Assembly: GCA_043804895.1 (NCBI GenBank)
Contig: JAZDIN010000007.1
Location: 1 to 40,622, forward strand
Direction of reading: 5' to 3'
DNA from: Candidatus Altiarchaeota archaeon
GTDB lineage: Archaea; Altiarchaeota; Altiarchaeia; IMC4; SCGC-AAA252-I15
DNA length: 40,622 nucleotides
This document shows positions 16,741-39,368 of the stretch, one piece after another. The number at the start of each line of letters is the position of its first letter. The stretch's first letter is position 1. The translations under genes were made by a program, and so were the position numbers. The notes below the pieces were generated by a model. It saw only the letters and a program-made list of their open reading frames with translations. It ran no database searches and was not told the origin of the DNA.

Positions 16741-19700
16741 ATGGACTTTCTGAAGGGTGCTAAGCTCGAATTGTTACACCTGCAGGCTGAGAACAGTCTC
16801 AAGAAGGGCGACTTCAGGTCTGCTTTGAAACACTACGAGGAGCTTTTCTCCATGTCCCTTGACGGCGCTGGGGAGGCGTCCGTCGCATACTACCTTGAGA
16901 GGATTGGCGACTGCTACGATAACCTCGACCACCACGGCCACAAGGAACGGATAGAAGACCACCGGAAGGCGGCTGAAAACTACGTTAAATCCGCTGACCG
17001 ATATAGGAAGTTGAGGAATCACGAGAAGGCGGGGGAGATATATGAGAAGGGCGCGAAGGCGTATGAGGAGGTGGATGACTTCACATCGGCTGCTGAGTTC
17101 TACAAGGAGTCTGCGACCATGTTCTCTGAAGTCAGGGACTACGTTAACGCGAGCTACGCCTACAACACGGCAGCAAGATACTACGAGAAGGACGGAAAAT
17201 TCGATGACGCAGCCAAGAACTATCAGGAGTCGGCTATATGCGACATGAGGATAAAGGACACGGCCAGCGCGGCCACGAGCTTCAAGAAGGCTGCGCAGAC
17301 GTATGAGAACGCGAAGAACTGGGCGAAGGCGATCGACGCCTACGCTGGGTCGGTCGAGATTGACTTGATAAACCGGCATTACCTGGACGTTGCGGACACA
17401 TACGATAGGATGGCTGACTGCTACTATGAGACGAACGACCAGAAGAACGCCGTCTACTATCACATAAAATCCGCGGAGCTTAAGGATGCGAACAGCGACA
17501 AGAACGGCGCTGGGTTAAGTTACAGGAAGGTGGGCACAATATACGAGAACGCAGGGGAATACGATCACTCGATAGAATACTTCCTTAAGTCTGCGAAGAA
17601 CTACTACGGCGCCAGCAGCTTCCAGCAGGAGGGGGCGTCGTACATGAACGCCGGCAGGGTTTATGAGTTGAAAGGCGATTTCGAAAAGGCTGGTGACTCA
17701 TACCTTGAGGCAGGAAAGTCCAATCGCGTCGGTAGGAACGAACCATTAGCCGAGGAGGGTTTCCTGAAGGCCGCGCAATCGTATTCGAAGGCCGCGGAAA
17801 AGACGGAAGACAAGGTAAAGTCAGCGGAGCTTAACATGAAGGCTGCACTCGCCTACAGTGAGATAAAGTCCTATGAGAGGTCGGCTGACTCATACAACAA
17901 GTACGCCGAGCTCATGTCAGCCGCAGGCGATAAGGTACACGCAGACGAAGGCTTCCGGAAGGCTGCGGAGGAGTACGTGAAAGGCGGGAAGATATGGGGG
18001 GCTGCGGAGGCGTACGTTAACCACGAGGACTACAAGAGGGCTTCTGAACTATACGACGCCCACGCCAACGAGAGGGCTGCCAAAAAAGACAACTTCGGCG
18101 CAGCAAACTCCTACATGGAGGCAGGCAACTGCTACAGGCGGCTTGGAAACGAGGCTGTGATGAAGGCCAGGCTCGAGCGTGCGGTATACTATTTCACTAA
18201 GTTCATAGAGGAGACGAAGGACAAGGACAAGTCTGAGAAGGCTATGCTGCTTCTGGGCGACTCATTCCGCAAAATCGGCGAATGCAACAAGACGCTGGCG
18301 GAGCTCATGGACGCGCAGCGGCACCTCACAAAGGCTGAGGAATACTACCTGAAAGCGAACGACGCCGACAGGCTGAACCTCGCCCGAGCCCTGAGGCTGA
18401 AGGTTGACGGAGTCAAGGCAATAGACCACGGATACTACCCTCAGGCTGAGGAGCTGCTCAGGGAGTCGCAGACTCTCCTTGATGCTTCCATCAAAAGCGG
18501 GGCATGGAAGCGGGAGTACGCGAAGATACTTGCCGAGGGTTTGGAGGAGGCGAAGGAGCTTGTCGAGAAGATAAAGCTGAAGCCTGAGGTGGTGCTCGAC
18601 GTCGACAGGTACTCGTACACGTTCCTGAACATCCCCGTCATACTCAACCTCACCCTGTCCAACAACGGCAAATACACGATGAAGGACGTGACGTTCCTAG
18701 AACACCTGCCTGAGGAGATTAAGCTGACGAAACTCCCAGAACACATGCCTGAGATAGTCTCCGGCGGCGTGAAGTCCTCATCCATCGAATTGAACCCAGC
18801 CAAAACCGGCCTACACATGCTCAAGCCGGTCGAGGTCTACTACGAGGACCAGAAAGGCCACAAGTACGTGAAGGCAAGCAACGAAGTCGTCCTCGAAGTA
18901 GTGGAGAGGCCGCCGACAGACTACAAGAACTACGCCAGCGCCTTGGAAATCTTCAGAAAATACGCGCAGTCCCAGGAGTCCAACAAAAACTGGTTCCAGG
19001 CAGGCGACGGGTACCGGCAGATGGCAGTCACCTACGGCCGCTTCAGAACAGACGAGACGCTGACCGGCTACCTGACCAAGTCTGTCGAGAACTACCGCAA
19101 ATACGTGGAAGCATACAGGAACCTGGGGGAGACTGACGACAAAACCAGGGTGAAGCGCCTTGCAGACGCCAACTGGTTCGCAGCCGAAGGCCTCAGGAAC
19201 CTGAACCAGATGGACGACTCAATCAGGCACTATGATGAGTCGATACCATTATACCGCCGCGGGAAGATGGAAAACCTCGCCAACCGCTCCGCTGCCTTGA
19301 AGCTGAAGTCAGAGGGTGTGAAGGCGATAAGGCTTGGCGACTACGGCAAGGCAGAAGGCAAACTGAATGAGGCGCTCGTATACATAGGCGAGGTAATAAA
19401 GGCAGGAGGGTACGACACAGACGGACTGGAGTTTTTGAAGAAAAACGAGGACGAGACAAGGAAGATGATAGAGACCGTCAAAGCCAAGCCAGAGATAAAC
19501 GTGATAGTGTCAGCTCCAAAATCAGCTCAACAAGGCGAGACCGTCACAATGAAAGCCACCATAACGAACCCGCTCGCACAAGACGTCCTGTCAGTGAGGC
19601 CTATGGTCAAGACCGTGGAAGGAGTAGAGGTGGTGGAGAACGCGAAACCGGTGGGCGGGTTGAAGGCAGGCGGTAGCGCGGACACGGAATTCAGGGTCAG

Positions 19701-22071
19701 GTTCAACAAAACCGGGCAGTACACGTTCAGCCCACTGGACGTCACATACAACGACGACAAGGGGAACGCGTTCATGCGCGGCAGCGCGGAATTGACAGTG
19801 GACGTGAGAGAGGAGTCTGAGGAAATTAGGCAGACCGTGCAGGAAACGAAGCCTGACATCAACATCGACCTTGACACCTACTCGTACACGTTCATAAACA
19901 TCCCGGTCATACTGAACATCAAGCTATCAAACAGCGGCGCATATGCGATGAGGAAGGTCACGTTCCTCGAACACCTCCCTGAGGGGATAAAACTCACGAA
20001 GCTGCCTGAGGGCGTTGCAGAGATAGAGCCGAACGGAATAAGACTGTCCTCGATTGAACTTACGCCCTCAAAGACCGGCATGTACACGATAAAACCGATA
20101 GAGGTGTACTACGAGGATTTGAAAGGGAGCAAATACGTGAAAGCCAGCAACCAGACCACCCTCGAGGTGGTCGAGAGGCCGCCCGCAGACTACAAAAACT
20201 ACATGAACGCGGTGGAGATATTCAAAAGATACGCCCAGTCGCAGGAGTCTAACAGGAACTGGTTCCAAGCAGGCGACGGATACCGGCAGATTGCAGGCAC
20301 ATACGGCCGCTTCAGAAGCGATGACACCCTGATGGGATACCACAGCAAGTCAATCGAAAACTACCGCAAATACGTTGAATCCAGCAAGCCCGAAGAAGCG
20401 GAAGACAAAACGAAAATCAAAAGGCAGGCTGACGCGTACTGGTTCGCAGCAGAGGCACACCGAAGCCTCAACCAGCTTGACGATTCAGTGAGAGCCTACG
20501 ATGAATCGATAATCTTATACCAGCACGGTGGGATGGACAACCTCGGCAACCGCTCTAAAGCCTTGAAGCTGAAGGCCGAGGGAGTCAAGGCCATAAGACT
20601 CGGGATGTACGAGAAAGCAGGGGAGAAGCTGAACGAGTCCCTGGCCCATATCAACGAGGTCATCAAGGCGGGAGGGTATGACGCCGACGGACTGGAGTTT
20701 TTGAAGAAAAACGAGGACGAGGCTAAGAAGATGCTCGAGACCCTCCTTACAAAGCCTGAGATAAGCGTTGTCGTGGAAGCCCCGAGGACTTGCCAAGTCG
20801 GGGACCCTGTCACATTGAAGGCGACAGTAACAAATCCCCTAAGCTACGGCATAACCGGCGTACGCTCGATAGTCAAGACAGTCGAAGGCGTGGAGGTAGT
20901 GGAGAATGGCAAGCCAGTGGACAGGATAGATGCAGGGAAAAACGCAGCAACCGAGTTCAAGATACGGTTCAACAAGGCTGGGCAGTACACGTTCAGCTCC
21001 CTGGATGTCACATACAACGACGATAAGGGGAAGTCCTACATGGTAGGCAGCAACGAGACGAAGATATCAGTAGGCGACAGCGCCCAAACAAGGATAATAC
21101 GGCCTCTCGGGGATTTTGGCAAACCGTCCCTCTCGCTTGATTTCGGAGTGGAAGCCAAGGTGAAAGCCCTCGTCGAGACTGAAATCACAGGAGTCGTATC
21201 AAACGACGGGACAGTGGACGTACTTGGCGTAAGGTTCATCGGGAACAACACAGACGATGTGGAAGTGCTGGAGGCGCCGAAAGAAATCGGATCCCTAACA
21301 GCCGGCGAGAGGATGGAAGTGAAGGCGAAGATAAAGGCCCTGAAGACAGGTACATTCCAATTCAACCCGTTCGAGTTCTTCTACAAGGACAAGCAAGGCA
21401 AACGGTTCTTCAAAGGAAGCAACCAGTTGACAGTCAACGCGCAGGAAGCTGAGGCGAAGAAAATCCAACAAGCCAGGGCATCATCGGAAGCCGAAGAGGC
21501 GAGGTTAGTGGACATAAGGGGCAGATTGGATGCGATACTCACCACCCTAGCGGACAACTCTGTCGTACTAATATCCTCAGACCTCGAGAAGCACAGCCAA
21601 GTCACGACAAACACACTGGACATCCTCATAAACCAGAAACGGATGGGCGGGGTCTATATCAGCGTAAGCCGGCCGTGCGAAGTAATACTTTCGGAACTTA
21701 AGGCTGAGGGTGTGCCGGCTGAGAACATACGCTTCATAGACTGCATAAGTCTGATGGCTGGGAAAAGCAGGGGGAAAGAAATCGAGAACGCAGTGTTCAT
21801 AGAGAATCCGAGCTCACTTGAGGAAATCAGCATGTACTTGGACAACATGCTCTCCAAAGTTAAAACCCAGAGGAAGTTCATCATCCTCGACTCTCTGGAC
21901 AGCGCCCTCATATACAACACAGACAAGAGCGTGAGGGAATTCACCCACTTCATAATCAACAGGATACGGCTTGAAAAGATAACCGGAGTCATATTAGCGA
22001 TGGAAAAGAAGGAAGCAGAAGACATAGTCAGGACAGTAGCATCAATGTGCGACACGGTAATAAAACTCTGA
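16741..22071 (+). CDS. Giant cytoplasmic protein: SNAP/TPR-like solenoid, repeated helical + Ig-like modules, C-terminal inactive KaiC/RecA-fold domain
   Basis: 1776 aa with no signal peptide or TM. Recurring A..Y..AA..Y helical repeats over aa 1 to about 610. Five beta-sandwich units (N.G...V.F...TG...P.EV.Y.D.KG). C-terminal GVYISVSRP/FIDCIS/IILDSL/CDTVIKL without a Walker A motif. Confidence 0.85.
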   Translation: MDFLKGAKLELLHLQAENSLKKGDFRSALKHYEELFSMSLDGAGEASVAYYLERIGDCYDNLDHHGHKERIEDHRKAAENYVKSADRYRKLRNHEKAGEIYEKGAKAYEEVDDFTSAAEFYKESATMFSEVRDYVNASYAYNTAARYYEKDGKFDDAAKNYQESAICDMRIKDTASAATSFKKAAQTYENAKNWAKAIDAYAGSVEIDLINRHYLDVADTYDRMADCYYETNDQKNAVYYHIKSAELKDANSDKNGAGLSYRKVGTIYENAGEYDHSIEYFLKSAKNYYGASSFQQEGASYMNAGRVYELKGDFEKAGDSYLEAGKSNRVGRNEPLAEEGFLKAAQSYSKAAEKTEDKVKSAELNMKAALAYSEIKSYERSADSYNKYAELMSAAGDKVHADEGFRKAAEEYVKGGKIWGAAEAYVNHEDYKRASELYDAHANERAAKKDNFGAANSYMEAGNCYRRLGNEAVMKARLERAVYYFTKFIEETKDKDKSEKAMLLLGDSFRKIGECNKTLAELMDAQRHLTKAEEYYLKANDADRLNLARALRLKVDGVKAIDHGYYPQAEELLRESQTLLDASIKSGAWKREYAKILAEGLEEAKELVEKIKLKPEVVLDVDRYSYTFLNIPVILNLTLSNNGKYTMKDVTFLEHLPEEIKLTKLPEHMPEIVSGGVKSSSIELNPAKTGLHMLKPVEVYYEDQKGHKYVKASNEVVLEVVERPPTDYKNYASALEIFRKYAQSQESNKNWFQAGDGYRQMAVTYGRFRTDETLTGYLTKSVENYRKYVEAYRNLGETDDKTRVKRLADANWFAAEGLRNLNQMDDSIRHYDESIPLYRRGKMENLANRSAALKLKSEGVKAIRLGDYGKAEGKLNEALVYIGEVIKAGGYDTDGLEFLKKNEDETRKMIETVKAKPEINVIVSAPKSAQQGETVTMKATITNPLAQDVLSVRPMVKTVEGVEVVENAKPVGGLKAGGSADTEFRVRFNKTGQYTFSPLDVTYNDDKGNAFMRGSAELTVDVREESEEIRQTVQETKPDINIDLDTYSYTFINIPVILNIKLSNSGAYAMRKVTFLEHLPEGIKLTKLPEGVAEIEPNGIRLSSIELTPSKTGMYTIKPIEVYYEDLKGSKYVKASNQTTLEVVERPPADYKNYMNAVEIFKRYAQSQESNRNWFQAGDGYRQIAGTYGRFRSDDTLMGYHSKSIENYRKYVESSKPEEAEDKTKIKRQADAYWFAAEAHRSLNQLDDSVRAYDESIILYQHGGMDNLGNRSKALKLKAEGVKAIRLGMYEKAGEKLNESLAHINEVIKAGGYDADGLEFLKKNEDEAKKMLETLLTKPEISVVVEAPRTCQVGDPVTLKATVTNPLSYGITGVRSIVKTVEGVEVVENGKPVDRIDAGKNAATEFKIRFNKAGQYTFSSLDVTYNDDKGKSYMVGSNETKISVGDSAQTRIIRPLGDFGKPSLSLDFGVEAKVKALVETEITGVVSNDGTVDVLGVRFIGNNTDDVEVLEAPKEIGSLTAGERMEVKAKIKALKTGTFQFNPFEFFYKDKQGKRFFKGSNQLTVNAQEAEAKKIQQARASSEAEEARLVDIRGRLDAILTTLADNSVVLISSDLEKHSQVTTNTLDILINQKRMGGVYISVSRPCEVILSELKAEGVPAENIRFIDCISLMAGKSRGKEIENAVFIENPSSLEEISMYLDNMLSKVKTQRKFIILDSLDSALIYNTDKSVREFTHFIINRIRLEKITGVILAMEKKEAEDIVRTVASMCDTVIKL
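18580..21075 (+). repeat. Intragenic tandem duplication with a period of 1269 nt (423 aa)
   Basis: KPEVVLDVDRYSYTFLNIPVILN at 18580 recurs as KPDINIDLDTYSYTFINIPVILN at 19849. Long near-identical peptides occur in both copies (NWFQAGDGYRQ, GLEFLKKNEDE, VKTVEGVEVVEN). Confidence 0.95.
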
Positions 22072-22090
22072 ACAGGCCTATCATCTAATT

Positions 22091-22121
22091 TATTAATGCG
22101 GCATTAATATAACATTAATGT
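22091..22121. promoter_or_regulatory. Palindromic operator upstream of the antitoxin gene
   Basis: TATTAATGC-G-GCATTAATA (22091-22109) and ACATTAATGT (22112-22121). ATTAAT occurs at 22092, 22103 and 22114. Confidence 0.7.
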
Positions 22122-22127
22122 GGGACT

Positions 22128-22370
22128 ATGGTGCAGGCTATCATAAACATCGAAGACCAGACAAACCGCGTCATCAACATGGTTAAGGCCAAATACGGCC
22201 TAAGGGACAAGAGCGAAGCCATCAACGTAATGGCGCAACAGTATGAGGAAAAAGTACTGGAACCACAGCTTAGGCCGGAATACGTGAAAAAGGCCAGGTT
22301 GATAATGAAGCAGAAACCGATAAAAGTCGGCACCGTGGGAGCGCTCAGGAAGAGGATGGGCCTGACTTAA
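22128..22370 (+). CDS. Putative antitoxin (DUF2683-like, ribbon-helix-helix type)
   Basis: MVQAIINIEDQTNRVINMVKAKYGLRDKSEAIN...EPQLRPEYVKK. Adjacent to a RelE-like toxin gene. Confidence 0.8.
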   Translation: MVQAIINIEDQTNRVINMVKAKYGLRDKSEAINVMAQQYEEKVLEPQLRPEYVKKARLIMKQKPIKVGTVGALRKRMGLT

Positions 22371-22639
22371 CGCGGCCTGTATATCCTGTCGTGATGGTCA
22401 TAGTCTTCCAACGTCACTGTCTTCGTTTTCTCATCCACTGAAAAGGCCAGGACAAAGTGTTTGTCTATGTGCACCCTCTTCCACTTATTCAAAGGCGTGC
22501 GGAGGTTCTTGTACCTATTGGGATTCTCCAACACCTCCTCTGTCTTCTTCAGGATGATCTCAACATGCCTCCTATTCCTCTTAGCCAGCTTGGAAAACTC
22601 CCTATCCAACTCCGGCTTAATGGCTAACTGGTACACCAA
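22367..22639 (-). CDS. RelE/ParE-superfamily toxin
   Basis: 90 aa. Motifs Y.L.I...LDREFSKL, NPNRYKNLR, KRVHIDKHFVL and DYDHHDRIY. TTG or GTG start. Confidence 0.82.
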   Translation of the reverse strand: MVYQLAIKPELDREFSKLAKRNRRHVEIILKKTEEVLENPNRYKNLRTPLNKWKRVHIDKHFVLAFSVDEKTKTVTLEDYDHHDRIYRPR

Positions 22640-22685
22640 TTAAACACTCATCGGCGGATATATAAAAGCAGTCTAATAGTATACC

Positions 22686-23630
22686 ATGGCCGAGAAGGAC
22701 AAGGATGTGTTTCAGCAGTTTCGGCAGTTGACTGATGAGATACACAAGAAGATTATCGGCAACGACGAGGTCATAGAGAACATCCTGATTGCGATTTTCG
22801 CCGGAGGCCACATACTCCTTGAGAGCGTCCCTGGTATGGGTAAGACGGTGCTGATTAAGGCTGTCGCCGACACCATGGACATGAACTTCATGAGGATACA
22901 GTGCACCCCGGACCTGACTGCGACAGACATCATGGGGAAGGTGAACTACGACGAGACGAAGAAGGAGAACGTCCTGGAGAAGGGCCCAATATTCACCAAC
23001 CTCCTGCTCATAGACGAGATTAATAGGGCGCAGCCGAAGACGCAATCCGCGCTCCTTGAGGCGATGGCCGAGGCTGAGGTGACGCTCGCGGGGGTGTCGC
23101 ACAAGCTGCCGCAGCCGTTCACGGTCCTTGCGACTGAGAACCCAGTGGAGCAGATGGGCACGTATCCGCTCCCGGAGGCGCAGAGGGACCGTTTCATGTT
23201 CATGTCAGTGCTACAGTACCTCTCACTCGAGGAGGAGATGATGATAATAAAGACGAAGTTCAAGGACAGCGCCATAGCGCCGATATTCAACCCTCCCGAG
23301 GTTCTAATCATAAGGGAGGAGATAAAGAACAACGTCACAATGTCCGACTCCGTCCTCGAGTACGCCCTGAAGATAATAGGTGGCACAAGGACGAGAAGGG
23401 AGGTCTCAACCGGCGGAAGCCCGAGAGCGACGATAGACTTCTGCAAGGCAGCGAAGGCGAGGGCATTCTTCAGGGGCCGCGACTTCGTCAACGCTGAGGA
23501 CATCAAAATGCTCTCCTTCCCGGTGCTTCGGCACAGGATAATATTAAACCCGGATTCGAAGGACTTCGGGATAACAACAGACGACGTGATAGCGAAGGTG
23601 CTGGAGCACGTTGAACCTCCAGTAGACTGA
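22686..23630 (+). CDS. MoxR-family AAA+ ATPase
   Basis: GHILLESVPGMGKT, RIQCTPDL, LIDEINRAQPKTQSALLEAM, ATENPVEQMGTYPLPEAQRDRF, GSPRA and VLRHRI motifs. Confidence 0.95.
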   Translation: MAEKDKDVFQQFRQLTDEIHKKIIGNDEVIENILIAIFAGGHILLESVPGMGKTVLIKAVADTMDMNFMRIQCTPDLTATDIMGKVNYDETKKENVLEKGPIFTNLLLIDEINRAQPKTQSALLEAMAEAEVTLAGVSHKLPQPFTVLATENPVEQMGTYPLPEAQRDRFMFMSVLQYLSLEEEMMIIKTKFKDSAIAPIFNPPEVLIIREEIKNNVTMSDSVLEYALKIIGGTRTRREVSTGGSPRATIDFCKAAKARAFFRGRDFVNAEDIKMLSFPVLRHRIILNPDSKDFGITTDDVIAKVLEHVEPPVD

Positions 23631-23633
23631 AAA

Positions 23634-26006: not shown

Positions 26007-26007
26007 C

Positions 26008-26550
26008 ATGGAAAACAGAGTCAAGTGGGCGCTGACAGCTATCATCGTGATAGCGATTCTTGTCGCATTGAACCTCAGGCTAAGCCCCACCCTGATAACC
26101 TACGCCCTCGCTTGCGCAATCGTTGTGACAGCGCTTTTGGTGTTGAAGCCGTCAGACCAGACGCTGTCGATGGACCTCAGCCATAAGATGAAGCGCGATG
26201 GCGGGATAAAACTGGACAGCAAGGAGAAGAAGCTACTCACCTTCCACATACTCGCCCTACTTGAGAAGAAGGAGGATGTTGACATGAACGAGCTGGCAGA
26301 GGAATTCAACACGAGCGTATACCAGCTGAACGACATCGTCCGAATGCTTGGCAAACACGAGCTAGTCACAATCTTCTACCCTCCTATGCACAACTTCCCC
26401 ATCCTCAGGAGGGGCGACGCTGAGAAGAGCAGGAAGTTCAGGCTCAACATATTCAAGTCGATAGTCAAGGGCAAGGAGTCTAACGGGTCTAAGATGGACG
26501 AGTTCGCGAAGGAGGTTGAAGAATACCTTGAAAACGTCAAAAGAAAATAA
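26008..26550 (+). CDS. Two-TM membrane protein with a cytoplasmic winged-helix domain
   Basis: Start at the ATG 1 nt after the upstream stop. Two N-terminal hydrophobic helices, then ILALLEKKEDVDMNELAEEFNTSVYQLNDIVRMLGKHELVTIFYP, which is wHTH-like. Confidence 0.7.
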   Translation: MENRVKWALTAIIVIAILVALNLRLSPTLITYALACAIVVTALLVLKPSDQTLSMDLSHKMKRDGGIKLDSKEKKLLTFHILALLEKKEDVDMNELAEEFNTSVYQLNDIVRMLGKHELVTIFYPPMHNFPILRRGDAEKSRKFRLNIFKSIVKGKESNGSKMDEFAKEVEEYLENVKRK

Positions 26551-27538
26551 AGCCACGGGCGCGTGGAAAATCCTCCTCACAGCAGCCTTGATGCTCCAAG
26601 CAACCTCAACAGCACAGGCAAACGACTACAGGACAGTAGAATCCTGCGCACTGGAATCCTCCCCCGGGTCCTGCTGGCCGGCCCAGATTATCTACTACGC
26701 CGGGGACCACACCTTCTGCAGCACAGGCGGACTCCCCTATTGGGTCGGATTCTACAGCGGACCGTCTAAGGGAGGATGCTACGAAATACTGTCCGTGGCA
26801 TGCAACTGCAAGGACCAGTTCGACTGCATAGTATTGCAGCCTCCAATTCCCCCCGATGTCGGTGCCAACGTCGAGGCCGGCGACATATTCAGCGTCTGGG
26901 ACTACTACCCCTCATGCTACGAGAGCCTCCCCTCCTCCATATTCCTTGACGTCGGCAACGACACAGACTACGAATGGTATGCGCCACGATGCTTCAGGGG
27001 CCCTGAGACGGTCGACGTCACTGAAAGCTTGAACAACTACGTCCGAGGCGGCTGCTGGTGCACGGGCTGCGTGTACGACAGTGACAGCAGAAACTGCACA
27101 GTCCCAGTCGTCTTCAAATCAGATTATCCTGGATGGTTCACAATCGACAACGTCAAACTCACGTTCACTAAGCTCAACACCCTCGGGGAAGTCACATACG
27201 GCACTCCCTTCAGAAACAGCGAAGGAGGATGCTGGATGATACAATATAAAAAAGACCCAGAAACCTACACACCCATCCTCCCAGTGCCTGCTGATTACCA
27301 CGGTGGAGTCTGCGACATGCCCGACTACGTTTACAAGGAAAAGTCAGGCCCCATCACCACAGACGACGCTGTGGACGATGCGGTGTACCGGCTCCTCAAC
27401 GGAACCCTCGACACAAACGGTGACGGCATAATGGACTTGGAATACAAAAGGGATAAGATGGAATTCCAGACTGAAGGGAAGATAGGAGTCCAGACACTAT
27501 GGGGGCCGATTCAGATGAGGCTGGTCGTATGGTCCTAG
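26528..27538 (+). CDS. Secreted Cys-rich pilus-associated/adhesin-like protein
   Basis: Sec-like signal ending TAQA, many Cys, and a DTNGDG loop. The C-terminal DDAVYRLL...LWGP...LVVW resembles the ends of archaeal pilus-locus proteins. TTG start 11 nt after GGAGGT; alternative start at 26516. Confidence 0.6.
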   Translation: MKTSKENKATGAWKILLTAALMLQATSTAQANDYRTVESCALESSPGSCWPAQIIYYAGDHTFCSTGGLPYWVGFYSGPSKGGCYEILSVACNCKDQFDCIVLQPPIPPDVGANVEAGDIFSVWDYYPSCYESLPSSIFLDVGNDTDYEWYAPRCFRGPETVDVTESLNNYVRGGCWCTGCVYDSDSRNCTVPVVFKSDYPGWFTIDNVKLTFTKLNTLGEVTYGTPFRNSEGGCWMIQYKKDPETYTPILPVPADYHGGVCDMPDYVYKEKSGPITTDDAVDDAVYRLLNGTLDTNGDGIMDLEYKRDKMEFQTEGKIGVQTLWGPIQMRLVVWS

Positions 27539-28854
27539 GGGTGAGGGGATACATCTTCACCCTCATAACAGCCATGATGGCCATGGTGATACTATCGCTC
27601 ATCCTCTTCCAGACTGAAATCTCAGCCCCGATATTCGAGGACGCTTCGAATAAGATGAGCGTGGAAGAATCACACTACTTCGTGGAGTCCCTCAAAAAGG
27701 ATGCGCAGAGGGCGCAGGCCATATCAGGCCAGCGGGCTGCCACATACGCCATCGACCACATAATCTCAACCAACGAGAGCATGGATGGGTATGGGATGAG
27801 AAACTGCACTGAATTCAACTACTCCACTGCCGGCGTCGAGGCCGCCCTCTCCGAGCTCGCATTCTGCGGCACATTAGCTAATGCTAAGGTGGAGACAGAC
27901 CAGGACGAGCTGGAAAAGTATATGGAGAACAACACCATACGCGACTGGATGGGGAAGGTGCAGGAGAACCGGACGCCCGGCGTAGCATACAACGTCAGCG
28001 TACGGCTCAGGAACATGAGCCTCGCCGCCTACGACTCATGGCATTACGCCATAGTCGGCGAATACGATTTAGTCGTGGACGCAGGCGGAGGAAACAGGTT
28101 CGCAGGATACGGTATCCCAGTCGTTTCAGTCGTGGACATCACCACTATGGAAGACCCCCTGCATCACATGAAATACGGTATACCCGCCTCAATGAGATTG
28201 TTCAGGCGGTGCGAAACGCTCCCAAGGCTCAACGGCAAGGTACTGGACCGCTGGGTGGAGGAAGGCTGCTACAACATGGAGTGGAACCGGGAAAACGCCC
28301 CCTCGTTCTTCGACAGGCTAGAGGGAAGAGACAGCCTAGACCCGGACCTAATCGAGGAGTCCGCTTCACTTTTGGGCGGCCTCGGCTACACTCCAGGCGA
28401 ACTTGGCTTAGAGAGCATGCTAGACCTCCAACTCCTCGAGAAGTACAACCTCACAGTGAATGGGAACCTAAGCCAGGTCGACCACTCCTACTGGGGCAAC
28501 GTGGAAAGCAGATGCGCGGTCGATGGCATGATGAAGCACCCTGACTTCAGAATGGACGTGGAACATGCGGTGAAATACAGGGTGGTTGGCTTAGACTGCA
28601 CAGTCTACGTGGACGTGGTAGGCTCAACATGCAAGTTCAACCCTGAGAAGATAAAAGTACCACTCAACACAACCATATCCTGGGTTGAACTCGGCAGCGG
28701 ACGCAAAGACCTTTACATAGTGGAACTGGACACGCCCCTCCCAGTCGAAGCCAACGGGAAGGTCCAATGGCTGTTCAACGAAACTGGCACATACACGATA
28801 GCATGCCTGGACGCCTCAGACGCATCCACAGTCGAAGTAACTGACAGATTCTAG
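27529..28854 (+). CDS. Minor pilin-like protein with class III-like signal peptide and C-terminal cupredoxin-like domain
   Basis: MVLGVRG/YIFTLITAMMAMVILSL. EDPL, PSFFDRLEG and GLES motifs, which I associate with archaeal pilus-locus proteins. C-terminal FNPEKIKV...ISW...FNETGTYTIAC. Confidence 0.65.
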   Translation: MVLGVRGYIFTLITAMMAMVILSLILFQTEISAPIFEDASNKMSVEESHYFVESLKKDAQRAQAISGQRAATYAIDHIISTNESMDGYGMRNCTEFNYSTAGVEAALSELAFCGTLANAKVETDQDELEKYMENNTIRDWMGKVQENRTPGVAYNVSVRLRNMSLAAYDSWHYAIVGEYDLVVDAGGGNRFAGYGIPVVSVVDITTMEDPLHHMKYGIPASMRLFRRCETLPRLNGKVLDRWVEEGCYNMEWNRENAPSFFDRLEGRDSLDPDLIEESASLLGGLGYTPGELGLESMLDLQLLEKYNLTVNGNLSQVDHSYWGNVESRCAVDGMMKHPDFRMDVEHAVKYRVVGLDCTVYVDVVGSTCKFNPEKIKVPLNTTISWVELGSGRKDLYIVELDTPLPVEANGKVQWLFNETGTYTIACLDASDASTVEVTDRF

Positions 28855-28967
28855 CCTGTGGATTTTTATGCCGAAAGCCACAGACACCACAATACCTCTA
28901 CTGTGGATAAATGCGGGTTGTGTGGCTTTCTTATAAATACCACAGGCTCCTGCCTGTGGATATTTAT
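28823..28967. repeat. Array of eight TGTGG/CCACA motifs upstream of the pilus ATPase
   Basis: Motifs at 28826(-), 28857(+), 28878(-), 28887(-), 28902(+), 28921(+), 28940(-) and 28955(+). Includes TGTGGATAA and two long inverted repeats. Confidence 0.8.
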
Positions 28968-28991
28968 TGAGCGGAACTCATAAGTAAACGA

Positions 28992-30818
28992 ATGGACGAC
29001 AAAAACCCCGCTTCTGGGGCTAAAGACCAGAAGAAAGCGCTGTTAGAACTTATAAACTCCTCAGGCAGGATAAAGATATCCCAGGCCTCCGAGGAAATGG
29101 GTTTGGACAAGAACATCCTCATCAACCTCGCCGAGGAACTCGCCCGCGACCACGCGATACGCGTCGAATCCCACTACATCACCGAACCGGAACTGGAAGC
29201 CCTCAACTATAAGGAGACAAAAAAAGAGGAGGCCACCTCAGAGAAGTCCATACAGATGGAGACTCCGCCGGTGCCGATGGCAAGGGCGGTGCCGAAGGAC
29301 ACGCCCGAGGCGAAGAAACAGGAGGTGATGGACGATTACATACTCACCTCAGACGAAGTCCACTTCAACGTTAAAATAACGGACGTCGGCGACTTCGTGC
29401 CCCACTACCTCATAACAATACCCCACATCGACTTCGTGACACGAGCCCTCCTCGATGAGACCAAAAGGTACCTGATAAGCGACGTGAAGGTGGAGACAGC
29501 GGACGTCTTCGACACAGCGAAGTTCCTGAAGATAAAGTCGAAGTTCACAAGCCGCGCCAAGGACAAGCTAAGGAACGTACTAAAAAAGTCATCTGACGAG
29601 TACGTCGCCACCCTAAGCAAGCTACTCGTCAACGAGATGCTCGGCCTCGGCGACCTAGAATACCTGCTCCTGGACGACAAGCTGGAGGAGGTCGTAGTCA
29701 ACTCCAGCAGGGACGTGGTGTGGGTCTACCACAAGAACCGCGGGTGGCTGAAGACGAACATAATCCTGCCCACAGAGGACCTGATACTCAACTACTCCTC
29801 AAGGGTCGCAAGGGAGGTCGGCAGGGAGATAACCCACCTGAACCCACTACTGGACGCCCACCTCACAACCGGAGACCGCATAAACGCCACACTCTCACCC
29901 ATATCAACTGCAGGCAATACCATAACAATTCGACGGTTCTCAAGGGTTCCATGGAGCGTCATAAACATGCTCGACCCCCAAGTCAAGACCGTGAGCTCCG
30001 AGGTAGCTGCCTTCCTGTGGATGGCGATAGAGTACGAGTTGAGCGTACTCATCGCAGGCGGCACAGCATCAGGGAAGACCAGCATGCTCAACTCAATCAC
30101 CCCATTCATGCCAGCTAACCAGAGGATACTCTCCATAGAAGACACGCGCGAACTAAACCTCCCCGACTACCTCCAATGGGTTCCGATGACCACCAGGCAG
30201 CCGAACCCGAAAGGTGAGGGGGGAATCACCATGCTCGACCTTTTACAGAACGCCCTTAGGATGCGCCCTGACAGGATAATAGTCGGCGAAGTCAGAGCAA
30301 AAAGAGAATCGGAAGTGCTCTTCGAGGCCATGCACACAGGACACTCAGTCTACTCGACATTCCATGCTGAGAGGGCTCAGGAGGTCGTCGACCGAATCAC
30401 AAGCCCGCCGATGAGCATACCCGGCACGGTCATGAAGTCCCTGCACCTGATAGTCATACAATACCGGAACAGGCGGACCGGAAAGAGGAGGACATTCGAA
30501 GTGTGCGAGCTGATGAAGGACGAGTCCGAGATGCCGACCCTCAACACCCTCTACAAGTGGGAGCCAAGAACCGACACACTCGGTAAGATGTACCCGAGCA
30601 TCAGGGTCAAGGAAGAACTCGCTCTCTTCACAGGGATGAACGAGAAGGAGATAGAGGAGGATATACAGGACAAGAAACAGGTGCTTGACTGGATGTTAGC
30701 CTCAGGCGTGTACGAGGTGAACAGCGTAGGCAGGGTCGTCACAGAATACTACATGAATAAGGAGAAGATAACCGGGATGGCTAAGAAGAAAGCACAGATG
30801 ATAAAATTCAACCCCTAA
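28992..30818 (+). CDS. Type IV pilus/type II secretion ATPase (CpaF/VirB11/FlaI family) with an extra N-terminal winged helix
   Basis: GGTASGKTS (Walker A), SIEDTREL (Asp box), LRMRPDRIIVGEVR (Walker B) and HTGHSVYSTFH (His box). Confidence 0.95.
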   Translation: MDDKNPASGAKDQKKALLELINSSGRIKISQASEEMGLDKNILINLAEELARDHAIRVESHYITEPELEALNYKETKKEEATSEKSIQMETPPVPMARAVPKDTPEAKKQEVMDDYILTSDEVHFNVKITDVGDFVPHYLITIPHIDFVTRALLDETKRYLISDVKVETADVFDTAKFLKIKSKFTSRAKDKLRNVLKKSSDEYVATLSKLLVNEMLGLGDLEYLLLDDKLEEVVVNSSRDVVWVYHKNRGWLKTNIILPTEDLILNYSSRVAREVGREITHLNPLLDAHLTTGDRINATLSPISTAGNTITIRRFSRVPWSVINMLDPQVKTVSSEVAAFLWMAIEYELSVLIAGGTASGKTSMLNSITPFMPANQRILSIEDTRELNLPDYLQWVPMTTRQPNPKGEGGITMLDLLQNALRMRPDRIIVGEVRAKRESEVLFEAMHTGHSVYSTFHAERAQEVVDRITSPPMSIPGTVMKSLHLIVIQYRNRRTGKRRTFEVCELMKDESEMPTLNTLYKWEPRTDTLGKMYPSIRVKEELALFTGMNEKEIEEDIQDKKQVLDWMLASGVYEVNSVGRVVTEYYMNKEKITGMAKKKAQMIKFNP

Positions 30819-30819
30819 G

Positions 30820-31686
30820 ATGAAATCCATATTCGAGTCGCCGGTAGTGCTCAAGATGAGCGAACCCCTACTGGAGTACGCGTACCGCCTCGAGGTCCTG
30901 TTCCCCCAAATGGAGTGGAACCTAAAGCGCGCCGGATACACCCTAGAGAGCTCGCAGTACCTTGCTGTGGCCATATACCTTAGCGTGACTGTGTTCACGT
31001 TCTGCGTGCCAATCCTCGTCCTACCGGTCCTTTTCACACAGGGCATCGCTGCAAGCTACGCCAGCATAATATACTCAATCATCATATCAGCAGCAGTCCT
31101 CGTGTACGTGATGATGCTACCCTCAGTGAGGATGAAAAGCAGGGCAGTCACAATCGACCGCGACCTGGAATACCTCCTCAAGGACATGAGGATACAACTG
31201 ACCGCGGGAGTCCCCCTCTTCGATACCATCGTCAACGTCGCCAAAGGCGGATACGGGGAATGCTCGAAGATATTCGAAGGGGTCATACAGGAGGTGGAGC
31301 AGGGCAGGTCAATCGTCGACGTCCTAGACGACGTAGGAATGTGGTCCTCCTCAGAGTACTTCCGAAGGATGCTCTGGCAGATAGTCAACGCACTCAAGTC
31401 CGGAAGCGACATAGCGAACGCACTCGACGCCCTCTCAAACGATATACGCCTGGAGAAGGAGAACAGGATAAGGGCCTACGGCAAGGAACTCAACCTCTAC
31501 GGCCTCATCTACCTGATGTTCGCCATCATAGTCCCCTCAATGGGCGTCACACTCCTAGTCATACTCTCAAGCTTCCTAGGGGGGAAGATGATAAACGAGA
31601 CCCTCTTCTGGATGATACTCATAGGCGTTGCGCTCTTCCAGACTATATTCATAGTGTACGTCAGAAGCAAGAGGCCCCTAGTCTAA
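30820..31686 (+). CDS. Type II secretion system F-family (TadB/TadC/FlaJ-like) platform protein
   Basis: TM pair, then GVPLF...GYGECSKIF...QIVNALKSGSDIANAL, then a C-terminal TM pair. Directly follows the ATPase. Confidence 0.9.
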   Translation: MKSIFESPVVLKMSEPLLEYAYRLEVLFPQMEWNLKRAGYTLESSQYLAVAIYLSVTVFTFCVPILVLPVLFTQGIAASYASIIYSIIISAAVLVYVMMLPSVRMKSRAVTIDRDLEYLLKDMRIQLTAGVPLFDTIVNVAKGGYGECSKIFEGVIQEVEQGRSIVDVLDDVGMWSSSEYFRRMLWQIVNALKSGSDIANALDALSNDIRLEKENRIRAYGKELNLYGLIYLMFAIIVPSMGVTLLVILSSFLGGKMINETLFWMILIGVALFQTIFIVYVRSKRPLV

Positions 31687-31687
31687 G

Positions 31688-32866
31688 ATGGCAGAAAACG
31701 AACCGAAGGGAATAAGGGTAGTCAAGCCGGACCTAGAGAGGGTGAAGAATGCAGCATCCTCAGCATTCAATACTGTATCATGGCTATTCAAACTCGTCTT
31801 CTGGGCTGTGAACATGATAGTGAGACTCTTCACGAAATTCCTGAACGTGATGGGATCCAGCGTCAAACTGCTCATGACACACATCCCCCGGTTGCTCTCC
31901 AAGATACTCCCGAAGAGGGTGAACAGCATCCTCGGGCAGCAGCTAATCTACGCCGGCGTCGAGATGACCCCAGCGGAGGTCATAAGCCTAACCCTCGTCT
32001 ACAGCACCGTACTCACCGCGGTAGCTTACGTGTCGATGCTCCTCCTTGCAGCATCACAGCTTGTGACCTCGGTAATACTAGTGGTCATCTTCTGCCTAGT
32101 CTGGTCTCTGCCACTCCTACTTCTGAACATCCTCGCAACCAACAGGGCGAATGCTGTGGAACTCACCCTCCCCGACATCCTAAGCATGGTAGCCCAGAAC
32201 ATGAGCGCAGGCATGACCTCCTACAACGCCCTCTGGAGCGCAGCCCGCCCCGAATTCGGCCCACTCGCTGTCGAGATACAGGATGTGGCGAAAGCCACCC
32301 TCACCGGGATACCGATGGCCGACGCCCTCATGGGGATGACCAACCATGTTAAGTCCACGAAGCTGCTTCGGGTAGTGAGGCTGATAATCCAGGGTATGAA
32401 ATCAGGAGGGGAACTGCCGACGGTATTGCAGGCAATATCATCGGACATGAGGCGGGAGGACAACCTCAGGAAGCAGATGGGCGCTGAAACCACAGCCCAG
32501 GCAATATTCATCCTATTCGCTGTCCTGGTGGGGGCCCCGCTCCTCTTCGCAGTCTCAGCCCAGTTCATAACGATATTCTCCACCATGATGGAGAAACTGA
32601 ACGTCCAAGACCTGAGCAAAAACGCCCCCCAGGGGATGATAACCATCAGCCAACTCTCAATCACACCCGAATTCTTCCAAACCTACGCCATCGGCATACT
32701 CTTCGTGTCAGCGTTCTTCGGCTCACTCCTACTCGGCATACTCAAGACCGGAAACCCGCTCTCAGGCCTATCCACCACACCACTCCTCATAACAGTCTCC
32801 ATCGGCATATTCCTACTCATAAAACACGGCCTCGGCCTACTATTCGCAGGGATGATAACCTTCTAA
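31688..32866 (+). CDS. Type II secretion system F-family (TadC-like) platform protein
   Basis: LPDILSMVAQNMSAGMT...ARPEFGPLA...GMKSGGELPTVL, with several TM helices and a long N-terminal extension. Confidence 0.9.
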   Translation: MAENEPKGIRVVKPDLERVKNAASSAFNTVSWLFKLVFWAVNMIVRLFTKFLNVMGSSVKLLMTHIPRLLSKILPKRVNSILGQQLIYAGVEMTPAEVISLTLVYSTVLTAVAYVSMLLLAASQLVTSVILVVIFCLVWSLPLLLLNILATNRANAVELTLPDILSMVAQNMSAGMTSYNALWSAARPEFGPLAVEIQDVAKATLTGIPMADALMGMTNHVKSTKLLRVVRLIIQGMKSGGELPTVLQAISSDMRREDNLRKQMGAETTAQAIFILFAVLVGAPLLFAVSAQFITIFSTMMEKLNVQDLSKNAPQGMITISQLSITPEFFQTYAIGILFVSAFFGSLLLGILKTGNPLSGLSTTPLLITVSIGIFLLIKHGLGLLFAGMITF

Positions 32867-32883
32867 ACGGCCGCAACAGGTTT

Positions 32884-33084
32884 ATCAATAACCGGCGACT
32901 TTAGTCGCCGGTTTGATGTGGGCTAGCGCTATGCGCTGTGGCCGAGCCACCAGGCTCGGACACACTCGTGAGCTTTGCTCACGCGTGTAGCACATGTGTC
33001 GGAGGCAGTGCCTCCGTCACATAAGCTTGAAACCGCAATAGTGGATGCATACCATTCGCCCCTCCCTAAAGGAGGGCGGTTTCA
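32884..33084. repeat. Cluster of at least six hairpins (REP/IS200-IS605-end-like palindromes or structured RNA)
   Basis: AACCGGCGAC-TTTA-GTCGCCGGTT; AGCGC-TAT-GCGCT; three 7-bp stems with a single mismatch and a basal TGTG/CACA-type stem; TGAAACCGC...GCGGTTTCA enclosing CCCTCC-CTAAA-GGAGGG. Confidence 0.85.
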
Positions 33085-33088
33085 TCGC

Positions 33089-33157
33089 TTATAAACCCCG
33101 TCTCTAATAGAATAGTAACTTACAGTTGTTTAATGTAAACAAAATTTTTTGAGGTGA
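33089..33157 (+). promoter_or_regulatory. Candidate TATA box and ribosome-binding site of the pilin gene
   Basis: TTATAAA at about 33089-33095. GAGGTGA at 33151-33157, 7 nt before the ATG. Confidence 0.55.
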
Positions 33158-33164
33158 ACAAAAC

Positions 33165-33647
33165 ATGATAGGAAATAAAGGACAGGGTGCGATGGAGTAC
33201 CTAATGACCTACGGATGGGCTATTCTCGTAGTGATGATAGTCGGGATCGTAATGTGGCAGCTGGGCATATTCAACATGGGCGGAACCACAGTAACGGCCA
33301 CAGGATTCGCCAAAATCAAGCCACAACTGGCTGGAACCGGCTTAGGCCACAGTGGGGATTTCGTGGGCGTTTTCACGAACGGAGTCGGGACGATGATTAT
33401 CCTCAGTGATACCAGTGCTGCGCTAACTATGTACCAAGATGGGGGTACAGGGACATGCCAAGCCTATACCATAACTCCTAAGACGGTCTCTGCAGGTCAG
33501 AACTTCCAGGTCACTGCAAGCGGCTGCTACAGCGGTTCAGCAGGCGACGTCTACAACCTCCAGGTTTCACTACCCTACACAGTTAGTATCGGCAGCGTGA
33601 GCACAGACCACACAGAATCTGGAGCAATAAGAGGGCCAATGGAGTAA
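33165..33647 (+). CDS. Archaeal type IV pilin (class III signal peptide), probable major pilin
   Basis: MIGNKG/QGAMEYLMTYGWAILVVMIVGIVMWQLGIF: basic-Gly cleavage site, Gln at +1, Glu at +5, hydrophobic helix. Beta-rich Thr/Ser/Gly head with two Cys. Confidence 0.9.
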   Translation: MIGNKGQGAMEYLMTYGWAILVVMIVGIVMWQLGIFNMGGTTVTATGFAKIKPQLAGTGLGHSGDFVGVFTNGVGTMIILSDTSAALTMYQDGGTGTCQAYTITPKTVSAGQNFQVTASGCYSGSAGDVYNLQVSLPYTVSIGSVSTDHTESGAIRGPME

Positions 33648-33659
33648 ACATACTCCATT

Positions 33660-33684
33660 ATCCTTTCTTTTTTCTATTCTTTTT
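33660..33684 (+). terminator. T-rich archaeal terminator candidate after the pilin gene
   Basis: TTCCTTTCTTTTTTCTATTCTTTT just after the pilin stop codon. Confidence 0.55.
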
Positions 33685-35497: not shown

Positions 35498-35590
35498 CCT
35501 CAGATATTAGGAAGGGGGATATATACCTTAACTAACGAGAAACAAACACCAAGTGTGATGGAGTGGATCTGGCGGTAAGGAGACAATAAC

Positions 35591-36484: not shown

Positions 36485-36667
36485 GCATCCTTCCAACTGC
36501 GGAATCAGTTGAGAACGAAGCCACCTTCTGCCTAGACTTCTTCGCTATGGACTCCCTCAGCTTCCCGTCAGTGTAAAGCTCGTCCAATGCCTTTGCCAGC
36601 TCCTGAGGGTTCTTCGGCTAGACGAGGTATGGTCGACCCCGTGTTCCAACACCACTCCTGCCTGTCC
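36456..36667 (-). pseudogene. C-terminal remnant of a GT4 glycosyltransferase
   Basis: Reads GQAGVVLEHGVD-(frameshift)-YLV*PKNPQELAKALDELYTDGKLRESIAKKSRQKVASFS...RLY, with a premature TAG at 36618-36620. Aligns by eye to THLVDSYIIPPKDPKRLAEAI of the GT4 at 39369. Confidence 0.8.
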
Positions 36668-36668
36668 G

Positions 36669-39306: not shown

Positions 39307-39368
39307 CTTTAGTATAACTATATTATGGGTGAAGCCAATAATAACGAATGCGTGAGGTGATTTAGCTT

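Follow-up and report, generated by a model that had tools for sequence, protein, structure and literature searches.

A PilA-type pilus operon of an Altiarchaeota archaeon lies beside a separable, lineage-specific MoxR module

The DNA analysed here (hereafter the window, meaning the whole stretch of 40,622 nucleotides, nt) is a complete 40.6-kb contig of Candidatus Altiarchaeota archaeon (JAZDIN010000007.1, assembly GCA_043804895.1), from a genome bin of 1.58 Mb with 88.7% completeness. Between positions 16741 and 33647 it carries ten genes on the forward strand, with a two-gene insertion between the first and the second. We read these genes as a PilA-type type IV pilus operon accompanied by a separate, lineage-specific module, the core of which is a gene pair encoding a giant protein and a MoxR-type AAA+ ATPase. 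In most of the family of the window and in two sister families, the module also includes a translationally coupled FG-GAP propeller gene and sometimes a gene for a MarR-like protein with two transmembrane (TM) helices. Our estimate for this reading, in which a functional coupling of module and pilus is plausible where both are linked, is about 50%.

The genes were delimited as open reading frames (ORFs), and domains were assigned by Pfam and NCBIfam scans of the 12 locus proteins. The features are the following:

16741-22071, forward strand: giant protein of 1776 amino acids (aa), from Pfam SNAP/TPR matches and from repeat and motif analysis
22128-22370, forward strand: DUF2683 antitoxin-like gene (Pfam DUF2683, 38.9 bits)
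22367-22639, reverse strand: YafQ/RelE-like toxin gene, convergent with the DUF2683 gene (NCBIfam YafQ family, Pfam ParE_toxin)
22686-23630, forward strand: MoxR-type AAA+ ATPase (Pfam AAA_3, AAA_lid_2)
23634-26006, forward strand: FG-GAP/TPR surface protein, 790 aa (Pfam, alignment, hydropathy, motifs)
25969-26550, forward strand: TM protein with a putative winged helix-turn-helix (wHTH), 193 aa (weak Pfam matches, Atlas structural neighbours)
26516-27538, forward strand: secreted Cys-rich 340-aa protein (sequence, model), the 3' end of its gene overlapping the start of the next
27499-28854, forward strand: large minor pilin, 451 aa (AlphaFold2, AF2, model; alignment of 27 sequences)
28855-28991, no strand: intergenic region 5' of the ATPase gene (sequence motifs)
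28992-30818, forward strand: GspE/FlaI-family pilus ATPase (Pfam T2SSE, NCBIfam FlaI model)
30820-31686, forward strand: TadC/T2SSF-like platform protein 1 (T2SSF 57 bits, multiple TM segments)
31688-32866, forward strand: TadC/T2SSF-like platform protein 2 (T2SSF 50.4 bits, multiple TM segments)
33165-33647, forward strand: PilA-type pilin with a putative class III signal (sequence, N-termini of orthologues)

As had been noticed from the letters of the window in the original prediction, the ten genes are co-oriented apart from the toxin-antitoxin (TA) pair, in which only the toxin gene lies on the reverse strand, and the genes from 22686 to 28854 abut or overlap. With the ORFs as listed, a 3-nt gap after MoxR is followed by overlaps of 38, 35 and 40 nt up to the 451-aa gene. 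The Atlas record has the TM protein start only at residue 14, so that the overlap with the propeller gene becomes a 1-nt gap, and 26008 is likely its true start.

Conservation of the locus was followed in 61 genomes of the class, in which families (f1-f9) and genera (g1-g31) bear codes internal to the analysis. Forty ATPase-centred loci were searched by tblastn with all window proteins and then submitted to ORF calling, and 20 further loci were taken around MoxR orthologues located off the ATPase loci. At the thresholds used (E 1e-4 to 1e-5) diverged homologues can be missed and many contigs are short; the sampled genomes are related, and the counts given here do not represent independent events. 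A wider public genome collection, queried with the FG-GAP protein and with MoxR, yielded no confirmed relative, and therefore the synteny rests on the 61 genomes of the class. For the giant, 340-aa and 451-aa proteins, every named source of a homologue was a Candidatus Altiarchaeota or Altiarchaeales archaeon, or 'uncultured archaeon'.

Orthologues of the pilus ATPase were detected in 56 of the 61 genomes (54-77% identity) and those of MoxR in 39 (53-82% identity). By family, MoxR was present in 16 of 20 genomes of f1, 2 of 2 of f3, 18 of 22 of f5 and in the single genomes of f4 and f7, and in none of f2, f6, f8 and f9. The giant and MoxR genes are adjacent in 27 genomes (the window and 26 relatives), and MoxR and FG-GAP in 20 (the window and 19 relatives), with a MoxR-FG-GAP gap of -38 to +5 nt in ten called ORF pairs. 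The module is linked to the pilus operon in 11 genomes, the window and ten relatives, from f1, f3 and f4. MoxR (64-78% identity) and FG-GAP lie upstream of the pilus genes in 10 of the 40 loci, eight from f1 (g1, g2, g3, g6) and one each from f3 and f4, and the collinear order giant-MoxR-FG-GAP-(TM-wHTH)-340aa-451aa-ATPase-TadC-TadC-pilin is kept in ten relatives, with two large genes in f3 and one in f4 inserted between the propeller and the 340-aa/451-aa genes. The other five ATPase loci of f1 stop at most 3.4 kb upstream of the ATPase, so linkage is not judgeable there. This recurrence supports the accessory genes as conserved companions, not chance neighbours.

Several observations weigh against a service of the module to the pilus. 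The giant-MoxR pair of f5 stands alone in 9 of 11 loci, with unrelated genes downstream of MoxR; orthologous pilus genes were found in none of these 11 MoxR loci, one of which has a paralogous TadC pair 5 kb upstream; and none of the 17 ATPase loci of f5, nine of them with at least 13 kb upstream, contained a giant or MoxR match. In the closed single-contig genome of f7 (G026), about 0.7 Mb separates the MoxR-FG-GAP pair (0.52 Mb) from the ATPase (1.22 Mb). In two f1 genomes (G011 and G014) the giant-MoxR-FG-GAP triplet is followed by unrelated genes and the pilus operons are on other contigs. The TM-wHTH gene was detected by tblastn in only seven relatives (from g1, g2, g3 and g10; six of them were aligned), and the KaiC-like end of the giant protein described below is absent from several linked genomes, such as G006, G016, G002 and G023. 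Furthermore, the Pfam scan of the 12 locus proteins gave no VWA or DUF58 match that could represent a vWA/DUF58 partner of MoxR. Finally, the gap from the module to the 340-aa gene varies from 16 to 528 nt among relatives, a promoter-like motif precedes the ATPase and the pilin gene has its own TATA-like box upstream, so that several transcription units are likely. In six more f1 and f3 loci, the triplet is followed by the end of the contig.

The promoter-like features are found at 28855-28991, where a TATA-like TTATAAATA, three CTGTGGAT repeats and a TATTTATTG motif are present, together with an 8-bp palindrome, CCACAGGC-N4-GCCTGTGG, immediately 3' of the TTATAAATA box. The TATTTATTG motif is also found 5' of the ATPase in 3 of 10 relatives. 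This region is probably an internal promoter, and its repeats and palindrome could be an operator for a winged-helix protein.

Because the module is unlinked in f5, f7, G011 and G014, the data point to a separable MoxR module docked by a pilus operon, and not to an obligate single machine. The latter had been the central inference of the original prediction, which took the ten genes as one trans-envelope adhesion or secretion machine with the accessory proteins as structural parts. Its premise holds insofar as the accessory set is conserved and the order recurs in 11 genomes, and the tight spacing from MoxR to the 451-aa gene would also fit. Some Altiarchaeota are moreover described as having a double membrane (Perras 2015, Bird 2016, in the portions of these papers used here), and a pilus there would need extra envelope parts. 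Nevertheless, f5 and f9 have orthologous pilus operons that lack the module, the module exists elsewhere without pilus genes, and the distribution of both the TM-wHTH gene and the KaiC-like domain is patchy, all of which makes an obligate machine very doubtful. The gene-neighbourhood comparison proposed at that time therefore gave a divided answer, with the full order kept in ten relatives and linkage missing in f5, f7 and two f1 genera.

How the linkage arose can be narrowed with the ATPase tree (41 rows, midpoint-rooted), in which f9 and f2 are outermost, followed by f6 and f7 and then by three branches (f4, f1+f3 and f5) in unresolved order. The f1 genera without linkage (g8 and g11) are sisters with support of 100/98. 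From this topology, the linkage was either ancestral to the f4/f1+f3/f5 trio and lost twice, or gained twice.

The main rival is that module and pilus are two independent neighbours, brought together by the clustering of surface-related genes. The giant-MoxR(-propeller) set would then mature or quality-control an envelope or surface complex, and the pilus would work alone. This possibility is a serious one, although we hold it only tentatively. The cases of f5, f7 and two f1 genera, in which module and pilus genes lie apart, the solitary f5 giant-MoxR pairs (possible FG-GAP orthologues of f5 lie on yet other contigs), the variable junction and the internal promoter-like motif all argue for it, as does a canonical MoxR-DUF58-vWA operon of the same genome, with an FG-GAP gene near and no pilus ATPase. 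Against it stand the collinear same-strand order in 11 genomes of three families despite deep divergence, with an FG-GAP orthologue identity that drops to 25-52% in the collinear loci, and the adjacency in outgroups of the family of the scaffold's KaiC-like end to the orthologous ATPase. A further hint of coupling is that a second, paralogous pilus locus on contig C4 of the genome is likewise flanked by FG-GAP, MarR-domain and KaiC genes.

On the pilus side of the preferred reading, the genes at 26516-33647 are firmly assigned, from the features of their predicted products, to a conventional PilA-type archaeal type IV adhesion pilus operon. The ATPase matched T2SSE with 115.4 bits and has a Walker A motif, GGTASGKT, at residue 356. 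Its nearest solved relative is 2oap (E 4.6e-70), before FlaI and CpaF, and it scored 239.9 bits with afGspE compared to 166.9 with CpaF. The N-terminus of the pilin, ...NKG/QGAMEYLMTYGWAILVV..., is identical in its orthologues and contains the motif KG/QGAMEYL plus a hydrophobic helix; its Pfam Class_IIIsignal match is weak (13 bits, E 0.1), and only chance-level matches were obtained against PDB sequences. Paralogues of the pilin are encoded on contigs C68, C62 and C6 of the same genome, which has seven pilus-type ATPase genes, and a prepilin peptidase (A24) on contig C58 scored 47.9 bits, above the cut-off. The domains, the Walker A motif and this peptidase bear out the earlier proposal that the ATPase, the two T2SS-F proteins and the class III pilin form an archaeal type IV pilus.

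Other assignments for these genes were discarded. An archaellum was rejected because the FlaI model gave 286.5 bits against a cut-off of 550 and no archaellin family was matched in the 12 proteins. A bacterial Tad pilus was rejected in view of the weaker match to CpaF and of the lack of Flp, TadZ and secretin families in the locus, in which only the split platform is TadB/TadC-like. A type II-like secretion system was also dropped, as evidence of a substrate or a secretin was missing.

The two proteins encoded upstream of the ATPase had both been taken for minor-pilin-like, an assignment that was kept for the 451-aa protein only. Its N-terminus, ...GVRG/YIFTL..., is class-III-like, with G17, T21 and L22 conserved in the 27 aligned sequences. 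In its AF2 model (pLDDT 88.4), an N-terminal TM helix after ...RG/Y leads to another long helix, then to a middle domain of mixed type and, at the C-terminus, to a cupredoxin-like sandwich. Residues 366-448 matched the cupredoxin 5fc9_A over 83 residues (Z 8.6, root-mean-square deviation, rmsd, 1.9), and residues 47-214 matched GspK (3ci0_K) with Z 6.5 and rmsd 3.0 over 96 aligned residues, which is within the common or noise range. By inspection only, no His is found in the cupredoxin-like stretch, so a type-1 copper site is unlikely. The 340-aa protein has instead a Sec-type signal (...STAQA/ND) and a conserved C-terminal domain (~140-340) for which no known fold could be matched, and its model revealed no pilin helix (pLDDT 66, with 76-93 per 10-residue block in the C-terminal domain; best structural match Z 3.8). 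The 340-aa and 451-aa proteins contain 15 and 8 Cys, respectively, and no Pfam family was found for them or for the pilin.

In three f9 loci (L033, L034 and L042), a vWA protein has a C-terminus homologous to the 340-aa protein, and its gene is followed by that of a relative of the 451-aa pilin, of 706-709 aa in L033 and L042 and of 365 aa in L034. As these vWA proteins carry the homologous C-terminal domain, the 340-aa protein may be a vWA-less remnant of a TadG-like protein.

The paralogous pilus locus on contig C4 (L001:3473-18233) contains an ATPase gene, two TadC genes and an antisense KaiC gene. Other genes there encode a MarR-DUF2226 protein, a CARDB protein, a divergent FG-GAP protein of 913 aa and two proteins, of 646 and 865 aa, that are related to the 340/451-aa pair.

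With regard to the module, the MoxR protein matched AAA_3 with 190.9 bits and AAA_lid_2 with 68.4 bits. Its Walker A (PGMGKT) and Walker B (DE) motifs are intact, and G50, G52, K53, T54, D110 and E111 are invariant in 17 orthologues. The same genome also encodes a canonical MoxR-DUF58-BatA/vWA-vWA operon on contig C66 (L002/L003). Within about 25 kb of it are genes for an 819-aa FG-GAP protein, a standalone DUF7504 protein and a DUF835 protein, as well as the third TA-pair copy, with no pilus ATPase nearby.

The protein encoded after MoxR matched FG-GAP_3 (40.2 bits) and FG-GAP (28.3 bits) and gave weak TPR matches. In the alignment of 11 orthologues, a signal peptide is followed by the propeller with a Cys-rich insert, about 250 TPR-like residues, a TM helix and a short acidic tail (...LExLE) on the cytoplasmic side, and the hydropathy profile likewise revealed an N-terminal signal and one C-terminal TM helix. 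The description of this protein as an FG-GAP/TPR membrane protein is thus kept as to its domains and its anchor, with the TPR part now placed outside the cell, as a stalk, because it follows the signal peptide and precedes the C-terminal TM helix. Four Ca-binding-like loops of the Dx[DN]x[DN] type were found in the propeller by motif scan (residues 46, 95, 385 and 473), and among the 11 aligned orthologues D46 is invariant and D50 and E54 nearly so.

A MoxR gene followed by a propeller gene, with a TA pair inserted beside them, could also suggest a conflict or defence system of the MoxR-vWA-beta-propeller type, the more so as Pfam bpMoxR is matched with 35.4 bits (cut-off 27). This idea deserves hardly any credence: AAA_3 is a far better fit, at 190.9 bits; neither a vWA protein nor an effector domain was found at the locus; the propeller is secreted and membrane-anchored; PADLOC gave just two 20-bit matches for MoxR and none for the other nine proteins; and the TA pair is missing at this position in all the relatives.

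This TA pair is a strain-specific insertion between the giant and MoxR genes. The distance from the giant stop to the MoxR start is 614 nt in the window and 15-89 nt in the nine relatives with both ORFs, and tblastn revealed no match to the pair in any of the 40 ATPase-centred loci. The toxin scored 65.7 bits with the NCBIfam YafQ family, below the cut-off of 87.25, and 21.6 bits with ParE_toxin. Two further copies of the DUF2683 and YafQ/RelE-like pair are located on contigs C33 and C66 of the same genome, and a related TA pair lies in the f7 genome (L051) about 3 kb beyond the FG-GAP gene end of the MoxR-FG-GAP pair.

The giant protein can be assigned, from its domains and composition, as a predicted cytoplasmic scaffold of the SNAP/TPR-Ig type (Ig, immunoglobulin-like). 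Its first ~610 residues form a SNAP/TPR solenoid in Pfam terms (SNAP 94.7 bits, TPR_12 59.8 bits), and Ig-type matches were obtained with NPCBM_assoc (31.4 bits), TRAP_beta (32.4 bits) and BatD (29.3 bits for the whole protein, cut-off 24.1). Residues 614-1027 and 1037-1449 are two Ig-helical-Ig units of ~415 aa with 67% mutual identity, the result of a recent internal tandem duplication, and a further Ig-like domain is present. As the size of the homologues ranges from ~750 to 1794 aa, with some of 1724-1794 aa, the number of these units varies. The protein has no hydrophobic segments and only 9 Cys in 1776 residues, in contrast to the Cys-rich extracellular proteins of the locus. A role as a secreted adhesin was rejected on these grounds: no signal peptide or TM segment is present, the protein is Cys-poor and its KaiC-like end is of a cytoplasmic type. 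Sequences related to its core are rare, with just 60 matching clusters among 1.84 billion representatives. A predicted complex between residues 590-1035 and MoxR scored 0.00 against a mark of 0.32, which says nothing either way.

The C-terminal domain (~1600-1776) is KaiC-like, of the DUF7504/DUF835 type. A KaiC/FlaH-like domain had been anticipated at this locus, and the resemblance to KaiC stands, although the scores are just under the Pfam cut-offs (DUF7504 26.8 vs 27 bits, KaiC 22.9 vs 26.6 bits) and the P-loop is absent, as a motif scan found no GxxxxGK[ST] (Walker A) anywhere in the giant protein. Its homologues clear the DUF7504 model (38.9-50.7 bits) and are labelled DUF7504 or DUF835 in their source annotations. 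By these features, the domain fits the term 'inactivated KaiC-like' (Makarova et al. 2016, PMC4858521).

About half of the 21 long giant homologues bear this domain. Each of the five f9 loci encodes, shortly before the orthologous ATPase, a standalone homologue of residues ~1600-1776 (tblastn), and in the three of these that were Pfam-scanned (L033, L034 and L042) it lies within a KaiC-DUF7504-small gene-KaiC cassette, beside the vWA and 451-aa-like pilin genes described above. A similar KaiC-DUF7504 cassette occurs on contig C25 of the window's genome, away from any pilus ATPase. Because the end domain of the giant occurs on its own beside the ATPase in these outgroups, a coupling between scaffold and pilus motor is hinted at; the fusion of this domain is the best hint we have that the scaffold may touch the motor or its KaiC regulators.

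The TM protein has two N-terminal TM helices and a C-terminal winged helix that appears MarR-like. Its gene is missing from the loci in which the propeller gene directly adjoins the 340-aa gene. Paired winged helices, one in this protein and one in the ATPase, had been part of the original description, and weak matches exist for both. For the TM protein, MarR (16.2 bits) and Rrf2 (17.1 bits) are below their cut-offs; the winged-helix region is aligned in 10 of 10 rows of Atlas structural neighbours with weak TM scores (0.37-0.42), nine being regulators, mostly MarR-named, and the tenth a GNAT protein with an HTH_34 part; and a profile search of its alignment against PDB sequences returned nothing relevant. 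For the N-terminal extension of ~100 aa of the ATPase, eight sequences were scanned (that of the window and those of seven orthologues): one exceeded the MarR_2 cut-off (29.6 vs 27 bits), and four more gave weak wHTH-type matches. A language-model look-up of this N-terminus provided only a 0.76 match and no family. This extension is a probable winged helix; it is missing from the f5 and f9 ATPases, the alignments of which begin near residue 100, and no mutual similarity was found between it and the winged helix of the TM protein. For the MarR-like protein, a role as a membrane-tethered regulator of the operon is more likely than one as a structural adaptor.

Taken together, these features suggest the following scheme. 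The GspE/FlaI-like ATPase and the split TadC platform would assemble the pilin with its putative class III signal, and the GspK-like minor pilin with the cupredoxin-like head and its secreted Cys-rich partner would likely act as priming or tip parts. MoxR would be a chaperone-like AAA+ remodeller, with the giant scaffold, beneath the membrane, as the adaptor that replaces a vWA partner, and the propeller may be a Ca-dependent surface adhesin or receptor. In the linked genomes, module and pilus could be co-regulated, and probably co-localised for attachment, with the P-loop-less KaiC-like end probably serving as the site at which the scaffold docks onto the pilus motor or its KaiC regulators.

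In a stronger form of this scheme, the pilus motor of several Altiarchaeota families would be physically built into a novel accessory apparatus made of a giant cytoplasmic SNAP/TPR-Ig ring with an inactivated KaiC-like dock, a vWA-free MoxR that remodels this ring and a Ca-binding propeller on a TPR stalk with its acidic tail held by the scaffold, the whole being a switchable organelle for attachment to other cells or to surfaces. We consider this form unlikely. If true, it would represent a counterpart of the archaellum ArlH/ArlX-CDE complex joined to a PilY1-like adhesin, possibly suited to the altiarchaeal envelope.

Most knowledge of archaeal type IV pili comes from a small number of model organisms, and their control and anchoring are poorly understood. 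Altiarchaeota are uncultured and widespread in the subsurface, and some have unique 'hami' hooks. The locus supplies a conserved candidate accessory module with predicted locations in the cytoplasm, the membrane and on the surface, a MoxR ATPase with a conserved partner other than a vWA protein, and a hint of the fusion type (the KaiC-like domain) tying a cytoplasmic scaffold to a pilus motor. The linked (f1, f3, f4) and unlinked (f5, f7) genomes offer a natural comparison for the service of the module to the pilus.

Among described systems, the closest in gene content are the euryarchaeal clade 2 PilA pili (PilB3/PilC3 of Haloferax volcanii; PMC4858521), which likewise have a VirB11/GspE ATPase, two tadC-like genes, a PilA-like pilin, a FlaFind-type minor pilin of 250-550 aa and frequent KaiC-family neighbours; this likeness is one of gene content plus a Pfam PilB3_C match on an orthologous ATPase. 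For clade 2, the part of that survey used here describes no giant TPR-Ig scaffold, FG-GAP/TPR protein or vWA-free MoxR, and the terms TPR, FG-GAP and wHTH do not occur in its main text (PMC4858521). In the thaumarchaeal subclade 4A, a MoxR-family AAA+ gene is likewise strongly linked to the pilus locus, but there the GvpN/MoxR-like protein is paired with a vWA protein (arCOG02900), whereas here the partner is the giant TPR-Ig protein (PMC4858521).

Parallels outside the PilA-type pili are looser. In the archaellum, the KaiC-like ArlH is encoded beside ArlI, and an ArlX/ArlCDE cytoplasmic scaffold is thought to surround the motor. The present locus likewise has a KaiC-like protein gene near a secretion ATPase and a large cytoplasmic scaffold; it differs in its ATPase below the FlaI cut-off, the absence of archaellins, a P-loop-less KaiC-like domain fused to TPR-Ig and the unrelated sequence of the scaffold. 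Bat operons have the composition MoxR-DUF58-BatA/BatB (vWA)-BatC (TPR)-BatD, and thus also combine MoxR with TPR and BatD-like Ig modules, whereas here vWA and DUF58 are missing, TPR and Ig are fused in one cytoplasmic 1776-aa protein and a secreted FG-GAP propeller follows MoxR. The pilus-associated propeller adhesins of bacterial type IVa pili are of the PilY1 type, which, by description only, can be likened to the present protein as Ca-binding beta-propeller surface proteins encoded with pilus genes; the propeller here is of the FG-GAP type, with its own signal peptide and a C-terminal membrane anchor, and is not a pilus-tip protein. ArnR/ArnR1 are reportedly membrane-bound HTH transcription factors that regulate the type IV pili of Sulfolobus. 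The TM protein is likewise a membrane-anchored HTH protein tied to a type IV pilus, but with two N-terminal TM helices, a C-terminal MarR-like domain, no sequence relation and a putative DNA binding.

In literature searches, no published description of the giant-MoxR-propeller gene set was found, nor an account of Altiarchaeota pilus loci. In the consulted portion of Bird 2016, on Altiarchaeales, 'pili' and 'pilin' do not occur and only 'flagellar proteins' appear, in the Alti-2 core, and in that of Perras 2015 type IV pili are discussed solely by analogy with hami. The earlier statement that the combination was not recognisable from described archaeal pili agrees with this as to the gene set, but the links of KaiC-like and MoxR proteins to archaeal pili had already been pointed out in a general way (PMC4858521). 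According to that survey, archaeal pilus loci often include genes for KaiC-family ATPases, MoxR/GvpN and vWA neighbours occur in Thaumarchaeota, two tadC genes are reported in clades 1 and 2, the relation between FlaH and KaiC is described and PilY is mentioned (Makarova 2016, PMC4858521); the apparently undescribed element is the three-gene set of giant, MoxR and propeller.

Some further observations concern the surroundings of the pilin gene. An Rfam scan of the whole window found no family. The stretch from the second TadC gene to the pilin gene (32867-33164) contains a GC-rich chain of hairpins with four inverted repeats of 11-19 nt and a folding energy of -125 kcal/mol, compared to -85±5 for shuffled sequences (z -7.8). 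At least seven further contigs of this genome contain pieces of it (88-100% identity), but the loci of relatives do not. By its sequence, it looks like a genome-specific dispersed palindromic element, similar to repetitive extragenic palindromes or miniature inverted-repeat transposable elements (REP/MITE-like).

On the other side, at 33683-40541, an antisense gene just 3' of the pilin gene encodes a polytopic membrane protein of 604 aa without a Pfam match, and relatives of this protein (37-46% identity) adjoin the pilin in L008, L012 and L020. Beyond it are an LPG_synthase_TM-like gene and genes for a hexapeptide transferase, an epimerase, a DegT aminotransferase and a GT4 glycosyltransferase, a sugar-modification cluster possibly involved in glycosylation of the pilin or the surface.

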